IMG/VR virus record: IMGVR_UViG_2778261502_000004
Span: 1-16,989 of that record
Strand: one strand, 5' to 3'
Origin: a virus
Taxonomy: Duplodnaviria > Heunggongvirae > Uroviricota > Caudoviricetes
Length of the DNA stretch: 16,989 nucleotides
The notes beneath the pieces are model-generated. The model was not told the origin of the DNA and searched no databases. It was given only the letters and a program-made list of their open reading frames with translations. Shown one piece after another: positions 8,421 through 16,989 of this stretch. A program made the position numbers and the translations under genes. The first letter of the stretch is position 1; every line of letters begins with the position of its first letter.

Positions 8421-8697
8421 CCGCAACAGCCACTTTGATATCTTCCTGGGTTCTCTGTGACTCCAGTGCAATCTGCTGTTTTGCATGCTGGTTAGCCTCT
8501 ATAACTGTATTGATGATTTGCAGTGATTGCAGAACGTTACGGGTAATGGCAGTTGCTGATTCAGCATTTCGTATAGCCTCATCAACACGCTCCTTTTCGT
8601 GCAGATATTTGCTGTAGTAATGCCCGGCAGACCAGATGAAGGAACCAATGACGGTAACAAAGAAGGCAACAATAACCAGCTTATATCTCAGCTTCAT
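8305..8697 (-). CDS. Inner-membrane spanin (Rz-like)
   Basis: 130 aa with N-terminal transmembrane segment (LVIVAFFVTVIGSFIW) and a coiled-coil-like remainder; start overlaps the endolysin stop. Confidence 0.75.
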   Translation of the reverse strand: MKLRYKLVIVAFFVTVIGSFIWSAGHYYSKYLHEKERVDEAIRNAESATAITRNVLQSLQIINTVIEANQHAKQQIALESQRTQEDIKVAVADDDCASRPVPAAAADRLRKYADSLREHSGGTTASQPDF

Positions 8698-9157
8698 TTA
8701 CTACCCCACCAGCCTCTTTAAACCGGGAAATCAGGTCGCCAATTTTATGTTCATACTGACCGTAACCTGCACCAGGTAACGACGCCCAGATATTGCTGCA
8801 ACGATCGATAGCCTGACGGATATCACCGCGATCAATCATCGGTAAAGCGCCACGCTCTTTAATCTGCTGCAATGCCACAGCGTCCTGGCTTTTCGGAGAG
8901 AAGTCTTTCAGGCCAAGCTGCTTACGATAGGAATCCCACCAACGGGAAAGAAGCTGGTAGCGCCCGGCTGCTGTTGATTTGAGTTTTGGGTTTAGCGTGA
9001 CAAGTTTGCGAGGGTGATCGGAGTAATCAGTAAATAGCTCTCCGCCTACAATGACGTCATAACCATGATTTCTGGTTTTCTGCCGTCCGTTATCCGTTCC
9101 TTCTGACCATGCCACCATATCGAGGAAAGCTTTACGCTGAGGATTAAGATTTTGCAT
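8681..9157 (-). CDS. R: Endolysin, lambda R-type lytic transglycosylase
   Basis: 158 aa MQNLNPQRKAFLDMVAWSEGTDNGRQKTRNHGYDVIVGGELFTDYSDHPRKL..., near-identical to lambda R as I recall it; AGGGGTGA RBS. Confidence 0.93.
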   Translation of the reverse strand: MQNLNPQRKAFLDMVAWSEGTDNGRQKTRNHGYDVIVGGELFTDYSDHPRKLVTLNPKLKSTAAGRYQLLSRWWDSYRKQLGLKDFSPKSQDAVALQQIKERGALPMIDRGDIRQAIDRCSNIWASLPGAGYGQYEHKIGDLISRFKEAGGVVNEAEI

Positions 9158-9486: not shown

Positions 9487-9576
9487 ACAATATGTACCTC
9501 CGGTGTACATATTACATGATTAAAATGAACCTTCAAGATACTTGTACCTTAACGGTACAAGGGTTTTAATTTCGTT
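9487..9576. promoter_or_regulatory. Divergent immunity control region with two 19-bp palindromic operators and candidate pR and pRM promoters
   Basis: Operators ATGTACC-N5-TGTACAT (9492..9510) and TTGTACC-N5-GGTACAA (9542..9560); minus-strand promoter TTGAAG (9531..9536) / 16 bp / TAATAT (9509..9514); plus-strand TTTAAT at 9565..9570 lies just before the cI ATG, suggesting a leaderless cI message. Confidence 0.55.
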
Positions 9577-10251
9577 ATGAAAACAATCCATGACATCCGG
9601 CGGTCTAACGCCAGAAAACTGAGAGATGGTGTTGGCGGGAATTCTTCCTTTGCCACTATGATTGATCGCGAGCCAACCCAGACCAGCAGGTTTATGGGAG
9701 ATGGTGCTACTAAAAATATCGGTGACAGCATGGCACGACACATCGAAAAATGTTTCGACCTACCTGTCGGATGGCTCGATCAAGAACACCAGACAACGAA
9801 CATCACAAAAAAACCTGATGTTTCAATCACTAATAAACAAATCACATTAGTCCCTGTCATATCATGGGTACAGGCCGGAGCATGGAAAGAAGTTGGATAT
9901 TCTGAGGTTGATTTGAGCACAGCAGAAACGTATCCCTGCCCTGTACCCTGTGGGGAAATGACTTATATCTTGCGGGTGATAGGTGATTCAATGATTGATG
10001 AGTACCGCCCGGGAGACATGATTTTTGTCGATCCTGAAGTACCTGCCTGCCACGGTGACGACGTTATTGCATTGATGCACGATACAGGTGAAACCACCTT
10101 CAAAAGGTTAATAGAAGATGGGACACAGCGTTATCTCAAAGCGTTAAACCCAAACTGGCCTGAGCCTTACATTAAGATCAACGGTAATTGCTCTATAATT
10201 GGTACAGTGATTTTCTCAGGAAAACCAAGAAGATACAAAATCAAAGCCTAA
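9577..10251 (+). CDS. CI-type prophage repressor: phage-CI HTH N-domain plus LexA/S24-type autocleaving C-domain
   Basis: 224 aa; N-terminal ...GDSMARHIEKCFDLPVGWLDQ; C-terminal domain with Ser in VIGDSM and Lys in TFKRL, the S24 catalytic dyad context. Confidence 0.9.
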   Translation: MKTIHDIRRSNARKLRDGVGGNSSFATMIDREPTQTSRFMGDGATKNIGDSMARHIEKCFDLPVGWLDQEHQTTNITKKPDVSITNKQITLVPVISWVQAGAWKEVGYSEVDLSTAETYPCPVPCGEMTYILRVIGDSMIDEYRPGDMIFVDPEVPACHGDDVIALMHDTGETTFKRLIEDGTQRYLKALNPNWPEPYIKINGNCSIIGTVIFSGKPRRYKIKA

Positions 10252-10263
10252 TCAATGTTTATG

Positions 10264-10288
10264 AACCTGCTTCGGCAGGTTTTTTTAT
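10264..10288 (+). terminator. Rho-independent terminator after cI
   Basis: AACCTGC-TTCG-GCAGGTT stem-loop followed by TTTTTT. Confidence 0.8.
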
Positions 10289-10290
10289 AC

Positions 10291-10323
10291 TTGACAATGT
10301 ACCTTTGAGATACATAATGTACC
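10291..10323 (+). promoter_or_regulatory. pL-like early-left promoter with overlapping operator
   Basis: TTGACA (10291..10296) / 16 bp / CATAAT (10313..10318); operator ATGTACC-N5-GATACAT at 10297..10315 with the same 7-5-7 layout as the cro–cI operators; extra half-site ATGTACC at 10317..10323. Confidence 0.65.
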
Positions 10324-10409
10324 CAAGAGAAACAACGAACAGGCAGGACGCCCACGAAGTAGCCGCCTGGGGCATATGAAGTCCAGGATGATTCGTTAGC
10401 AACAAAAAA

Positions 10410-10440
10410 GCGCCCTACAGGACGCTTAGCTCTTTAACAA
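10410..10440 (+). promoter_or_regulatory. Candidate antitermination site: short hairpin followed by an rrn-type boxA
   Basis: GCTCTTTAACAA (10429..10440) matches the core of the rrn boxA consensus TGCTCTTTAACAA; preceded by hairpin GCGCC-CTACA-GGaCGC (10410..10425); located in the 5' leader downstream of the pL-like promoter. Confidence 0.5.
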
Positions 10441-10485
10441 TCTGGTCCCCATCAACAAGTAACTGATAACTTGAGGAGATGTGAA

Positions 10486-10692
10486 ATGCACAAAACAGAA
10501 CCCAAAATCGTCGCGCCTGGCTACACAGATGAGGAAATTTATGAGTGGATGACAAAGAAGCTGGCAGCTATAAACCAGCTTCGTGAAGTGCTGTCTTATC
10601 GACAGGAAACAATAGACTCCTTAAAAAAACTGGATCAGGAAATCACGGTTTTATCACAGGATGTTACTTTAGATATTGTGCAGACAAATTAG
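10486..10692 (+). CDS. Small hypothetical protein, first gene of the pL-like transcript
   Basis: 68 aa MHKTEPKIVAPGYTDEEIYEWMTKKLAAINQLREVLSYRQETIDSLKKLDQEITVL... ; GAGGAG RBS 7 nt upstream; not Arg-rich, so not an N-type antiterminator. Confidence 0.55.
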   Translation: MHKTEPKIVAPGYTDEEIYEWMTKKLAAINQLREVLSYRQETIDSLKKLDQEITVLSQDVTLDIVQTN

Positions 10693-11098
10693 GATCCCAT
10701 TCATTTTCGTCAAAATCATCAAAGTGATGAATTTGTGATCTCCAGTCTCGATAATCTAAAAATTTCTGGGCGGTTACGCTTATTTTATCAAGTGTGAGTT
10801 CATCCTGAATTGAAAGAAGAAGTTCATCAAATTTCATCTCATTAATCTGTTTTGGCATCCAGTGATGCTTCATCAGAATAAGGTGAACCAGAGCCTTTTT
10901 CCCATTCAACTGATTATAGGGAGTGCCGAATTTCTTCCGGTGCTCATGTAAGACAAGGTCCAAAAGAGTAAGTAATGTTGCCCTTGATTCAACTTTGCTT
11001 ATTTCGACTGATGACACTACCCCACTGATTTCAATGCCCCGATACTTTCCAACATTTTCACAGTGGGATTTGTACAGCGTATAGATATTACCGGACAT
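10664..11098 (-). CDS. Hypothetical protein on the opposite strand, AT-rich, 3' end overlapping the 68-aa gene by 29 bp
   Basis: 144 aa MSGNIYTLYKSHCENVGKYRGIEISGVVSSVEISKVESRATLLTLLDLVLHEHRKKFGTPYNQ...; AAGGA-like RBS; soluble; no family recognised. Confidence 0.55.
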   Translation of the reverse strand: MSGNIYTLYKSHCENVGKYRGIEISGVVSSVEISKVESRATLLTLLDLVLHEHRKKFGTPYNQLNGKKALVHLILMKHHWMPKQINEMKFDELLLSIQDELTLDKISVTAQKFLDYRDWRSQIHHFDDFDENEWDPNLSAQYLK

Positions 11099-11113
11099 TT
11101 CTTTTCCTTTTGC

Positions 11114-11162
11114 GTTGTTGGGGATAACCAGATTAACCGAATCCTTGTTGTTGGGGAATAAC
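11114..11162. repeat. Two direct repeats just upstream of the 144-aa gene start
   Basis: GTTGTTGGGGATAACC (11114..11129) and GTTGTTGGGGAATAAC (11147..11162), 17 bp apart. Confidence 0.5.
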
Positions 11163-11382
11163 TAGGTCCACCTCGCCTGATGTGGCTAAAAGCAGGCACA
11201 TAACAGCTAAGTATTTTCAACCAGAGAGAATCCTTAGCGTTGTGGTGAATGCGGCTCAGCGCACGCGGGTTAAGGTTGAGGCTGACAGTCGACCTTCTGT
11301 GGATACCCACCCGCCTGGTGTGCAACCTTCGCCAGGCACCGGGAGGCACCCGGCACCACAACTTTATGCTGTGTGTAGTCTT

Positions 11383-11429
11383 GGCGGTACCAGCTTGTAC
11401 CCTTGCTTCCGGCTGGTACCGTCCTTTTT
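11383..11429 (+). terminator. Strong rho-independent terminator inside the early-left leader (tL1-like)
   Basis: 10–12 bp GC-rich stem (CGGTACCAGC / GCTGGTACCG), 17-nt loop, then TTTTT. Confidence 0.7.
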
Positions 11430-11431
11430 AC

Positions 11432-11516
11432 AAAACAGAGAAGAGCATCACCGGACGACGGGCTCATAACCCAATCCATCCGGGCGGCAGTCACCGCAGG
11501 TGTTCTTCTCTGTTTT
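11432..11516. repeat. 16-bp inverted repeat enclosing a GC-rich ~53-nt segment, right after the terminator
   Basis: AAAACAGAGAAGAGCA (11432..11447) versus TGTTCTTCTCTGTTTT (11501..11516), one mismatch. Confidence 0.5.
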
Positions 11517-14141: not shown

Positions 14142-14491
14142 TGGAGCCATACAGCCTCACACTCGATGAGGCCTGTCATTTTCTCAAGATATCCAGACCG
14201 ACTGCCATTAACTGGATACGCACAGGGCGTCTTCAGGCAACACGCAAAGATCCCACTAAGAATAAATCTCCTTACCTCACAACACGACAAGCCTGCATTG
14301 CGGCTCTTCAGTCTCCGCTGCATACTGTCCAGGTGAGCGCGGGTGATGGCATAACAGAGGAAAGAAAATGTCACTCTTCCGCAGAGGTGAAATATGGTAC
14401 GCCAGTTTCACATTGCCGAACGGTAAAAGATTTAAACAGTCTCTTGGAACAAAGGACAAAAGGCAGGCGACAGAACTCCATGACAAGCTAA
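14141..14491 (+). CDS. xis: Excisionase (P22 Xis-like)
   Basis: Start ATG 14141 (AGGTGA RBS; TAATG overlap with the previous gene), 116 aa [33 protein letters not shown]...; 3' end overlaps the integrase start by ~124 bp. Confidence 0.8.
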
Positions 14492-15531
14492 AGGCTGAAG
14501 CATGGCGGGTCAGCAAACTTGGTGAAATACCTGATATAACGTTCGAGGAAGCGTGTGTCAGGTGGCTTGAAGAGAAAGCACATAAAAAATCACTGGACGA
14601 TGACAAAAGCCGGATCGGATTCTGGCTTCAACATTTCGCAGGAATGCAACTAAGAGACATTACTGAATCAAAAATTTATTCAGCAATGCAGAAAATGACG
14701 AACCGGCGTCATGAGGAAAACTGGAAACTCAGGGCAGAAGCATGCAGAAAAAAAGGGAAACCTGTTCCAGAATACACGCCAAAACCAGCGTCCGTTGCAA
14801 CGAAGGCTACGCATCTTTCATTTATAAAGGCCCTACTAAGAGCCGCAGAGCGTGAATGGAAAATGCTGGATAAGGCACCAATTATTAAAGTGCCCCAACC
14901 AAAGAATAAACGGATCCGCTGGCTGGAGCCCCATGAAGCACAAAGGCTGATTGATGAATGTCCGGAGCCATTAAAGTCTGTTGTTGAATTTGCACTGGCA
15001 ACAGGCCTAAGACGCTCGAACATCATCAACCTTGAATGGCAACAAATAGATATGCAGCGCCGGGTGGCATGGATAAACCCGGAAGAGAGTAAATCAAACC
15101 GCGCAATTGGCGTTGCGCTGAATGATACTGCATGTCGCGTATTGAAAAAACAAATCGGGAATCATCACCGTTGGGTATTTGTGTACAAGGAAAGCTGTAC
15201 CAAACCAGACGGAACGAAAGCGCCAACAGTCAGGAAGATGCGGTATGACGCAAACACAGCCTGGAAAGCGGCGCTGAGACGGGCTGGTATTGATGATTTC
15301 AGATTTCACGACTTGAGACACACCTGGGCAAGTTGGCTGGTTCAAGCCGGAGTCCCGTTGTCAGTGTTACAGGAAATGGGAGGCTGGGAGTCTATCGAAA
15401 TGGTTCGTCGATATGCTCACCTTGCACCTAATCACCTTACCGAACACGCACGGCAAATAGACTCGATCCTAAACCCATCGGTCCCAAATTTGTCCCAGTC
15501 AAAAAATAAGGAAGGTACTAATGATGTGTAA
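14368..15531 (+). CDS. int: Tyrosine-recombinase integrase of the P22 / SfV family
   Basis: 387 aa [24 protein letters not shown]...; C-terminal [10 protein letters not shown]...VRRYAHL carries the catalytic His/Arg/Tyr context; ends 15 bp from the tRNA 3' end. Confidence 0.93.
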
Positions 15532-15545
15532 CTTATTGATTTAAA

Positions 15546-15621
15546 TGGTGCCGATAATAGGAGTCGAACCTACGACCTTCGCATTACGAATGCGCTGCTC
15601 TACCAACTGAGCTATATCGGC
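15546..15621 (-). tRNA. thrW: tRNA-Thr (anticodon CGU), the attachment tRNA
   Basis: Reverse complement reads GCCGATATAGCTCAGTTGGTAGAGCAGCGCATTCGTAATGCGAAGGTCGTAGGTTCGACTCCTATTATCGGCACCA, 76 nt with CCA end and anticodon loop CATTCGTAATG. Confidence 0.97.
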
Positions 15622-15735
15622 CCTGAAAGGACATGTTCACGAACGTGAATCACGGTGGACAAGGTTAAAACTAACCGGGCGATGCGTCAATGGCCTTGTG
15701 AATCAAATGGCTACTTTTGCATCACCCGGTTTTAT

Positions 15736-16989
15736 TTACGCACGAATGGTGTAATCACCAATGCCGATCCACTTGTAAGTGGTCAGTGCTTCCAGCCCCA
15801 TTGGGCCACGCGCGTGGAGTTTTTGTGTGCTTACCGCCACTTCCGCACCCAGACCAAACTGGCCGCCGTCGGTAAAACGCGTAGAGGCGTTAACGTAAAC
15901 AGCGGACGAATCCACTTCGTTAACAAAACGCTGGGCGTTGCGCATATCGCGGGTCAGGATCGCATCGGAGTGTTGTGTGCCGTGTTCACGAATATGGGCG
16001 ATGGCATCGTCAAGATCGCTGACGATTTTGACGTTCAAATCTAATGACAGAAACTCATCGTCATACTCTTCGGCTTTAACAGCAACCACCTTCGCAGGGC
16101 CTGCCTGCAACTGCGCCAGTGCAGCTGCATCTGCGTGTAATGTCACGCCGCTTTCCGCCATTTGTTTGCTTAATGCGGGCAGGAAGCTATCGGCGATGTT
16201 TTTATTCACCAGCAACGTTTCAACCGTATTACATGTGCTCGGACGCTGAGTTTTCGCGTTGACGATCACTTTTAATGCTTCAGCGATCTCTACACTTTCA
16301 TCAACGTAAATATGGCATACGCCTATACCACCTGTGATCACCGGGATTGTCGACTGTTCACGGCACAGTTTATGCAAACCAGCGCCACCACGCGGGATCA
16401 GCATGTCGATGTATTTATCCATACGCAGCATTTCACTGACCAGCGCACGGTCAGGATTATCAATCGCCTGCACGGCACCCGCCGGTAAGCCGCAGGATTT
16501 CAGGGCGTCCTGAATCACCGCCACCGTTGCAGCGTTAGTGCGACACGTTTCTTTGCCACCGCGCAGGATCACCGCATTACCGGTTTTCAGGCACAGCGAA
16601 GCGACATCAACCGTCACGTTCGGGCGCGCTTCATAAATCACGCCAATAACCCCCAGCGGTACGCGACGACGCTCAAGACGCAGGCCGCTGTCCAGTACGC
16701 CGCCATCGATTACCTGCCCCACCGGATCGGCGAGGTTGCACACCTGACGTACATCGTCGGCAATGCCTTTCAGCCGTGCGGGCGTCAGTGCCAGACGGTC
16801 AAGCATCGCTTCGCTAAGGCCATTGGCTCGCGCGTCAGCAACATCCTGGGCGTTAGCGTTGAGGATGATTTCGCTTTGTGCTTCCAGTTCATCGGCGATT
16901 TTTTCCAGCACGCGATTTTTTTCGCGGCTGGAGAGTTGCGCTAATTTATACGAGGCTTGCTTCGCGGCAATGCCCATTTGTTCCAGCAT
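15736..16989 (-). CDS. proA: Gamma-glutamyl phosphate reductase (proline biosynthesis)
   Basis: Complete 417-aa ORF starting exactly at the window end ([27 protein letters not shown]...); recognised as E. coli ProA; adjacent to thrW as in E. coli. Confidence 0.97.

Follow-up and report, generated by a model that had tools for sequence, protein, structure and literature searches.

A conserved convergent gene pair of temperate enterobacterial phages as a mobile module with a possible role in prophage defence and self-immunity

Prophages that carry defence genes may hold a safeguard against them: in SieB-Esc, as in BstA, the resident phage has a built-in escape from its own weapon. In Tha/Ith, a system of S. 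aureus prophages, a small overlapping antisense gene encodes an inhibitor of the prophage-expressed defence protein (Rostol et al. 2024, PMC11087260); the two states exclude each other through opposing transcription, and both the inhibitor protein and, less strongly, the antisense transcription contribute (PMC11087260). BstA, encoded downstream of cI, is an example of a defence gene in this place that needs a means of self-immunity; it owes this immunity to a DNA element, aba, and not to a second protein, and this element includes short direct repeats at the gene start (Owen et al. 2021, PMC8585504). In the e14 prophage of Escherichia coli K-12, the ymfI-ymfJ pair has been listed as a convergent excludon (PMC12288877), and at a late stage of the SOS response the ymfJ transcript goes up by about 4.8 log2 and its protein is detected (PMC11002266). 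Here we describe two genes, A (144 aa) and B (68 aa), from a 16,989-nt stretch of caudoviricete DNA (IMGVR_UViG_2778261502_000004; the whole stretch is referred to below as the window). Gene B is encoded on the plus strand (10486-10692) and gene A on the minus strand (10664-11098), and their 3' ends overlap by 29 bp (10664-10692), as a previous reading of the letters and open reading frames (ORFs) of this DNA, the sequence-only reading, had stated. Our analysis has shown that A and B are two real protein genes and that they make up a single convergent module, conserved and horizontally mobile among temperate enterobacterial phages. Both protein families have already been catalogued, yet are uncharacterised, and the architecture is a variant of the antisense-encoded self-immunity principle.

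Like Tha/Ith, the A/B locus combines a lysogeny-active gene with a small overlapping gene on the opposite strand, both sited in the lysogeny/immunity region, although for A and B these roles are proposed ones. The small protein of Tha/Ith switches the larger one off on induction, and the same is proposed for the action of B on A. The differences are also considerable. Tha has a HEPN domain, while A has no recognisable domain and no sequence or fold relationship to Tha. The tha gene is part of the cI operon and ith is transcribed from a constitutive promoter, while A is on the strand opposite to cI, with its own putative promoter, and B lies downstream of a predicted operator-bearing pL promoter. 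Moreover, the hosts of A/B phages are Gram-negative, and A and B are known from sequence alone. The ymfJ/ymfI pair of e14 occupies the same slot between the same flanks, downstream of a repressor that has the same protein accession in near-identical prophages. Its genes are convergent, with overlapping 3' ends, the plus-strand gene being the first on the pL transcript and the minus-strand gene being antisense to it, but BLASTP shows no relationship of their proteins to A and B, and the status of a mobile module is established for A and B only. Finally, A matches in position the lysogen-expressed accessory or defence genes found immediately downstream of the repressor, namely BstA/aba and the lambda/P22 exclusion genes rexAB and sieB(-esc). 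The direct repeats of A lie upstream of the gene; aba is a DNA element with terminal direct repeats, which spans the gene start.

The sequence-only reading described gene A as an AT-rich orphan. The composition is indeed unusual, with a GC content of 37.9%, while the window as a whole has 48% and the adjacent segment 11168-11548, labelled in public records as ymfH, SfIV gp34/gp35 or a 'frameshifted hypothetical' coding sequence, has 55%. The orphan status did not hold for either gene. The product of A belongs to the NCBIfam family NF033230 ('ECs1072 family phage-associated protein'; 157.8 bits at a cut-off of 70, residues 4-144 aligned with profile positions 2-142) and to PHROG 5286 (E 1.5e-90, positions 1-144 of 144). 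A profile search among 1.84 billion representatives yielded 76 clusters, nearly all of them comprised of single-domain proteins of 145-155 aa; a word-indexed search recovers close relatives only. In the family alignment, L50, R54, L64, G66, A69, H72 and W80 are near-invariant, and W134 is invariant. The AlphaFold (AF2) model, based on an alignment of 46 sequences, is an all-alpha compact bundle of about eight helices (pLDDT 94.3, pTM 0.88), and the protein is mildly acidic and soluble (pI 6.4). No Pfam domain was found in A or its relatives, and A had no match in the PDB sequence profile search or in BFVD. Given the absence of Pfam domains and the negative PADLOC search (see below), A is not assigned to BstA/aba, and no homology of A or B to BstA, rexAB or sieB was observed.

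Gene B matches PHROG 1744 over its full length (E 6e-35, positions 1-68 of 68), and the profile search for it gave at least 159 clusters at the 90% level. These span Escherichia, Shigella, Salmonella, Citrobacter, Klebsiella, Enterobacter, Kluyvera, Serratia, Xenorhabdus and Arsenophonus, all being annotated as 'hypothetical' and none having a Pfam domain. The ATG codon at 10486 is preceded by GAGGAG 7 nt upstream, while a TTG-extended form would begin at 10471. The B protein is small and acidic (pI 4.8), and its homologues from eight lineages share the motif M..EP...G.(S/T).E(E/Q)(I/L)..W(M/L)..K(L/V). In the small ORFs that converge on A, the shared motif is M..(E)P.(I/F)...G.(S/T).E(E/Q)(I/L)..W(M/L)..K(L/V), and a long segment resembling a helix comes after it; a hidden Markov model built from these ORFs scores each of them with E-values from 1e-21 to 1e-34. 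No Pfam domain matched B, and the PDB search gave nothing but coiled-coil noise. A match to a known early-left phage function, which would have counted against the sequence-only reading, was not found in the searches with A and B. Neither NCBIfam nor PHROG links the two families, both genes being full-length members of the respective entries. In the library searched for literature on NF033230, PHROG 5286, PHROG 1744 and defence at this locus, no functional mention or pairing was found; one microarray table lists ECs1072, the namesake of the A family, which in uninduced O157 Sakai is 2.1-fold down on leaving exponential growth (PMC2241611).

Both proteins are under purifying selection. The dN/dS ratio is 0.20-0.31 for A and 0.14-0.26 for B (rough values, dS being saturated), and 0.17 for the 59 codons of B beyond the overlap. 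As purifying selection persists beyond the overlap, B is a real protein gene, not a by-product of the A 3' untranslated region (UTR). The two ORFs stay open, with selection retained, in relatives down to 35% identity, and the protein motifs of both families hold at 20-35% identity, where the nucleotide sequences can no longer be aligned. These data bear on an explanation at the RNA level, according to which the convergent transcripts are an excludon or antisense pair controlling the pL read-through into a small RNA (sRNA) and the early-left genes, the ORFs being secondary. With regard to a convergent excludon, the nucleotides show that the ORFs overlap at the 3' ends in every A/B pair measured and that the predicted A-transcript terminators lie inside or beyond B. 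The first terminator-like hairpin downstream of A is at 10557-10582 (minus strand, inside B; 9-bp stem followed by TTTGTC, a consensus match only), and the second one, a predicted intrinsic terminator, is at 10408-10427 (minus strand, 8-bp stem followed by TTTTTT). Moreover, the two UTRs of the minus-strand mRNA could base-pair just ahead of the terminator (-18.6 to -30.1 kcal/mol, about 1.4-4.2 standard deviations below shuffled controls), this complementarity being kept in four cassettes, and ymfI-ymfJ has been scored as an excludon. Still, an RNA unit with secondary ORFs is contradicted by conservation of both ORFs as proteins at saturated synonymous change (dN/dS 0.14-0.31) and by protein motifs that outlast nucleotide alignability, and we consider it very improbable. 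RNA-level regulation is compatible with the reading that we favour, in which B protein would antagonise A protein, and is already a part of it.

To characterize the pairing, we examined the genomic context of A homologues, from 72% down to about 25% identity, which represent 12 independent lineages from Escherichia, Serratia, Klebsiella and metagenomes. In ten lineages (the window, L011 from E. albertii, L013, L016 from Serratia quinivorans, L017, L018, L019, L021, L025 and L027 from Klebsiella), a B homologue converges on A and overlaps its 3' end, the overlap being 29-146 bp in all nine A/B pairs measured. The identities of A and B co-vary (r = 0.63 for 36 non-independent pairs). In a lineage found by way of B, L026 from S. 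Typhimurium DT104, an intact B stands beside a C-terminal remnant of A. Such tight co-inheritance with co-varying divergence could also be a property of a toxin-antitoxin or abortive-infection-type module, where one product is growth-inhibitory, the other is its antidote, and the overlap sets their ratio, the effect being prophage stabilisation or the death of infected cells. The small size and acidity of one partner, the mobility of the module between phage slots, and the A-only and B-only remnants, as in decaying toxin-antitoxin loci, agree with this explanation. However, classical type II systems are co-directional operons with a DNA-binding antitoxin, while A and B are convergent, and no toxin, antitoxin or helix-turn-helix domain was recognised in either protein. 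Moreover, A-only (L012, L023) and B-only (L026) loci persist, and thus neither product looks unconditionally toxic. Overall, a toxin-antitoxin or abortive-infection module is an unlikely explanation.

The position of the module in the phage genome varies, while its polarity does not. Five loci (the window, L011, L017, L018 and L025) have B as the first ORF, or one of the first, after the S24 repressor gene, co-directional with pL. In L019 it belongs to an operon divergent from the S24 repressor, which, judging by the gene layout, appears to be the cro side. In L021, L026 and L027, B is located after the gene of antiterminator Q (Pfam Antiterm) and before the holin gene, on the same strand; L016 has the layout of these Q-adjacent loci, upstream of lysis genes, with the gene in the place of Q being presumably Q. 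Thus, B is always directed with the adjacent lytic operon, be it pL, cro-side or Q-dependent late, and A is always opposed to it. Since this polarity is kept across early and late operons, B seems to be meant for lytic transcription, and A seems to be meant not to be read by it. The sequence-only reading treated the genes as a local pair of this pL region; they are one two-gene module, found also in the late region between Q and the lysis genes of other phages, and hence B belongs to the module and is not a resident early-left gene.

The position of B immediately after pL, where lambdoid phages place regulators, allows for yet another explanation, a life-cycle device that sets the lysis-lysogeny decision or the early-gene timing, with B, the first product of pL, and A, expressed from the opposing promoter, modulating some factor of the host or the phage, while their expression would be mutually exclusive owing to the antisense overlap. 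In line with this, ymfJ, which holds the equivalent place in e14, goes up when that prophage is induced; B comes after a conserved leader RNA and a boxA-like site (see below); and the functional helix of lambda CIII can be aligned with B residues 12-27. The likeness to CIII is not significant, as the hhalign probability is 1.2% for 16 columns, aligned with the same CIII residues, and the Pfam family Lambda_CIII does not match B; homology of B to CIII was rejected. The life-cycle explanation is further weakened by the presence of the module between Q and the lysis genes, which is too late for an early decision, and by the tolerance of the slot to full replacement by unrelated or single genes, typical of dispensable cargo rather than of core regulators. 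We regard such a device as improbable, to the same degree as a toxin-antitoxin module.

The slot in question is a hypervariable one. The sequence-only reading placed the pair in a region of accessory genes, which is supported by at least five unrelated alternative cassettes between identical flanks in other E. coli prophages. The flanks are matched by 2817 of 5426 complete E. coli genomes, and the A/B cassette is present in 407 of them (about 7.5% of the 5426). A and B are also found in prophages of Shigella, Salmonella, Klebsiella, Citrobacter and Serratia. The e14 prophage has in this slot the convergent overlapping pair ymfJ (plus strand) and ymfI (minus strand), and the other cargos are single minus-strand genes of 171, 159 or 167 aa (L005 1717-2232, L006 1826-2305 and L007 1771-2274) and a 91-aa plus-strand gene. 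The three single minus-strand genes, like A, are antisense to pL. No homology was found by BLASTP between A or B and the other slot proteins (ymfJ, ymfI and four others), the cargos being mutually unrelated, and the alternative cargo proteins showed no convincing Pfam match and no PADLOC defence match. On visual inspection, the 159-aa protein seems to have a pair of hydrophobic helices, the 171-aa protein has a coiled-coil segment and a CxxC...CxxC pattern, and the 167-aa protein is helical.

The left cassette junctions lie within 10397-10454, and the right ones are at 11114 or 11168. From 11114, the three single minus-strand genes share the upstream region with A, including the repeats and the -10-like element described below; two of these genes have a slightly degenerate first repeat, and the start codons are 16-17 nt from the junction. 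The terminator at 10427-10408 is likewise common to A and these three cargos, and variants of the left-junction repeat are kept there too. Thus, the slot supplies ready-made minus-strand expression signals, and the three single genes are candidate accessory or defence genes using a shared putative promoter and terminator. At the cargo junctions themselves there are imperfect inverted repeats of about 20 nt (AATCTGG.TATCCCCAACAA and its complement), located exactly at 10439-10459 and 11114-11157 and in the corresponding places of L005, L006 and L007. The left copy (10439-10459; inverted repeats I4 and I7) reads AATCTGGTCCCCATCAACAAG. These repeats are kept, with cassette-specific changes, around four unrelated cargos. 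Their interpretation as marks of an invertible or transposable cassette was rejected, as no locus examined has the cassette in the inverted orientation and the repeats belong to the shared flanks.

The region upstream of A (11099-11160, minus strand) comprises the 5' UTR and a putative promoter, with a -10-like element GGTTAATCT at 11138-11130 between two direct repeats. The repeats, noticed already in the sequence-only reading, are exact 11-mers, GTTGTTGGGGA at 11114-11124 and 11147-11157 (TCCCCAACAAC in the sense of the minus strand, 11157-11147 and 11124-11114). A third copy of GTTGTTGGGGA, inverted and with one mismatch, is located at 10446-10456, just upstream of B. The three matches in the window, all at the locus edges, compare with 0.34 expected, and three were reached in one of 200 shuffles. 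The TCCCCAACAAC repeats look like possible operator sites around a weak promoter. In nine of the 12 lineages, the best or near-best match to an extended -10-like element, TGnTAnnnT, is located 28-40 nt upstream of the A start, the surroundings being otherwise unrelated. This conserved element and, indirectly, the microarray signal of ECs1072 in uninduced O157 Sakai (PMC2241611) are the signs that A may be expressed in the lysogen.

On the opposite side, B follows a predicted early-left promoter of the pL type, with TTGACA at 10291, a 16-nt spacer and CATAAT at 10313-10318 (plus strand; 11 of 12 consensus positions). It is overlapped by two palindromes TGTACC-N5-(G/A)(G/T)ACA (10298-10314 and 10318-10334), and related palindromes TGTACC-N5-GGTACA are found in the cI-cro intergenic region (9492-9510 and 9543-9559). 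As these operator-like palindromes overlap the promoter and are related to the cI-cro ones, the promoter at 10291-10318 is likely a pL equivalent repressed by cI. B is the first ORF after it, and A is antisense to its transcript, in agreement with the sequence-only reading, which had put the 68-aa gene on a pL-like transcript. The transcript of the cI-type repressor itself is presumably closed by an intrinsic terminator immediately upstream of the promoter (10263-10282, plus strand; 8-bp stem followed by a T run, found by a terminator scan).

The very 5' end of the pL transcript forms a conserved structured leader RNA of 70 nt (10330-10399, plus strand), which is unclassified; an Rfam search with it gave no match. 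Its 29-nt core, ACAGGCAGGACGCCCACGAAGTAGCCGCC, is invariant; a hairpin and an outer helix come next, and three base pairs show compensatory changes. The leader occurs in 51 phage records from at least ten genera, including SfV, SfII, ST64B, mEp237, mEp460, SPN3UB and ZF40, as well as phages of Yersinia, Pantoea, Klebsiella, Providencia and Aeromonas, and it is located about 80-130 nt downstream of repressor genes of differing type (six annotated loci: four phage genomes, e14 and Ec042T5). The put RNA of HK022 is a two-stem structure of about 70 nt after PL, with a related copy after PR, and the leader at 10330-10399 resembles it in size and position only. A relationship to put was rejected, as the covariance model of the leader finds nothing in the HK022 genome at E <= 10. 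With the same model, neither the window nor the SfIV region nor the E. coli 1428 prophage yielded a second, pR-side copy. In other carriers of the leader RNA, convergent pairs of unrelated sequence come first after pL (L031 1305-1720 in Pantoea phage AH07, L032 1298-1788 in Yersinia phage YeP1 and L004 2677-3264 in e14), and the convergent layout at this position is thus recurrent.

Downstream of the leader, the hairpin at 10408-10427, read on the plus strand, precedes a boxA-like sequence of the rrn type, GCTCTTTAACAA (10429-10440, plus strand), which has one exact occurrence in the window and which we take to match 12 of 13 positions of E. coli rrn boxA (TGCTCTTTAACAA). The leader RNA, the hairpin and the boxA-like site may form a nut-like leader for processive antitermination. 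Further along the pL transcript there is a region resembling the prophage sRNAs STnc100/PasD, with a terminator (11209-11432, plus strand), within the GC-rich segment 11168-11548. The match to Rfam RF02076 (STnc100) covers model positions 1-206 of 206 with 43.4 bits, below the gathering score of 47 (E 1e-7), and the 3' part is DicF-like, followed by the terminator. A 2026 preprint ties STnc100 to PasD prophage sRNAs. The 5' part of this RNA (11228-11250, plus strand) contains GCGTTGTGGTGAAT, which resembles the repeat GCGTTGTTGGGGAT (11109-11125, plus strand). Base-pairing of the STnc100-like RNA with the 5' UTR of the A mRNA (ACAACGC, just upstream of the ribosome-binding site) could be envisaged, although this is speculative.

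Taken together, these features suggest the following order of events. In the lysogen, pL would be repressed, and A would be transcribed from its own weak promoter of the extended -10 type (approximately 11130-11138). Its transcript would end at 10582-10557 or at 10427-10408, being antisense to a part of B or to all of it, and the A protein would provide a lysogen-stage accessory function, most likely to exclude other phages or to defend the lysogen against them. Once the repressor has been inactivated, strong transcription from pL would pass through the leader and B and then run head-on through A, causing transcriptional interference and formation of double-stranded RNA, and B, as a small acidic helical protein, would neutralise A, so that the phage's own lytic programme would be spared. 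The genes, their pairing, their polarity and the slot are shown by the data above, and we infer the timing of expression, the antagonism between A and B and the defence role. A defence role of A is plausible. Production of A in the lysogen, ended on induction by antisense transcription together with B protein, is a tentative proposal, to which we assign somewhat less than an even chance. The broader suggestion that A and B are a new prophage defence system of Enterobacterales with self-immunity, in which the A protein, with a new all-alpha fold, blocks incoming phages in the lysogen and B, read from the adjacent lytic operon of whichever kind, is its cognate inhibitor, is possible but more doubtful. 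In this view, the module would travel in a dedicated expression slot that consists of the shared promoter and 5' UTR, the terminator and the flanking inverted repeats, and phages would exchange cargo through it.

Several observations weigh against this proposal. Two A lineages, L012 and L023, have no B, and B is frequently frameshifted in database entries at an A7 tract (10623-10629); hence, B is not indispensable wherever A exists. The frame switches in this tract yield B forms of 80 aa and 61 aa, observed in 5-13 contigs each, including the E. albertii locus L011, and they could be due to sequencing errors, decay or phase variation. The Q-adjacent loci would produce B at a late stage, and an antidote made at that time makes sense only with A acting on late steps. 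On the minus strand, a consensus scan found no canonical sigma-70 promoter, and the -10-like element of the window, GGTTAATCT, lacks the T of TG. Searches of PADLOC-DB v2 at E <= 10 gave no family for A or B, that is, no homology to defence genes. Finally, the prophage in the window is itself defective.

This prophage is a degraded one, of the SfIV/e14 type, and the segment 9301-15250 is 99.3% identical to Shigella phage SfIV. SfIV and the E. coli 1428 prophage are homologous to the window from 9301 on, a position within the last cro codons, and this gives a Cro fusion ORF of 97 aa. To the left of 9301 there are a lysozyme gene (8681-9157) and tail genes, with the tail sheath ORF being just 301 aa long. 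As these genes lie directly to the left of the cro remnant, the replication genes, Q and other genes of the pR operon are missing from the prophage in the window. In the orientation of the window, the cro remnant is located to the left of cI on the minus strand. The cI-type repressor (9577-10251, plus strand) belongs to the LexA/S24 family and is ymfK/CohE-like (Pfam Peptidase_S24, E 1.5e-26); its homologue in an E. coli prophage 99.7% identical is labelled ymfK or LexA family protein. The right end of the prophage contains the integrase gene (14368-15531) and adjoins a tRNA-Thr(CGU) gene (15546-15621, minus strand), beyond which, in the region 15546-16989, a 417-aa gene of the aldehyde dehydrogenase family is probably proA. 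This junction presumably corresponds to the thrW-proA attachment site of SfV-group phages.

If A is an exclusion or defence protein of the lysogen and B its induced inhibitor, the module would be a Gram-negative counterpart of Tha/Ith, built of unrelated proteins and wired the other way round. The orientation rule, with the small gene directed with the lytic operon, the large gene directed against it and the 3' ends overlapping, provides a purely genomic signature that may be used in the search for further switch-off pairs. The slot, with its reused flanks, interchangeable cargo, leader RNA and sRNA, is a compact place for new accessory functions in SfV/e14-like phages.

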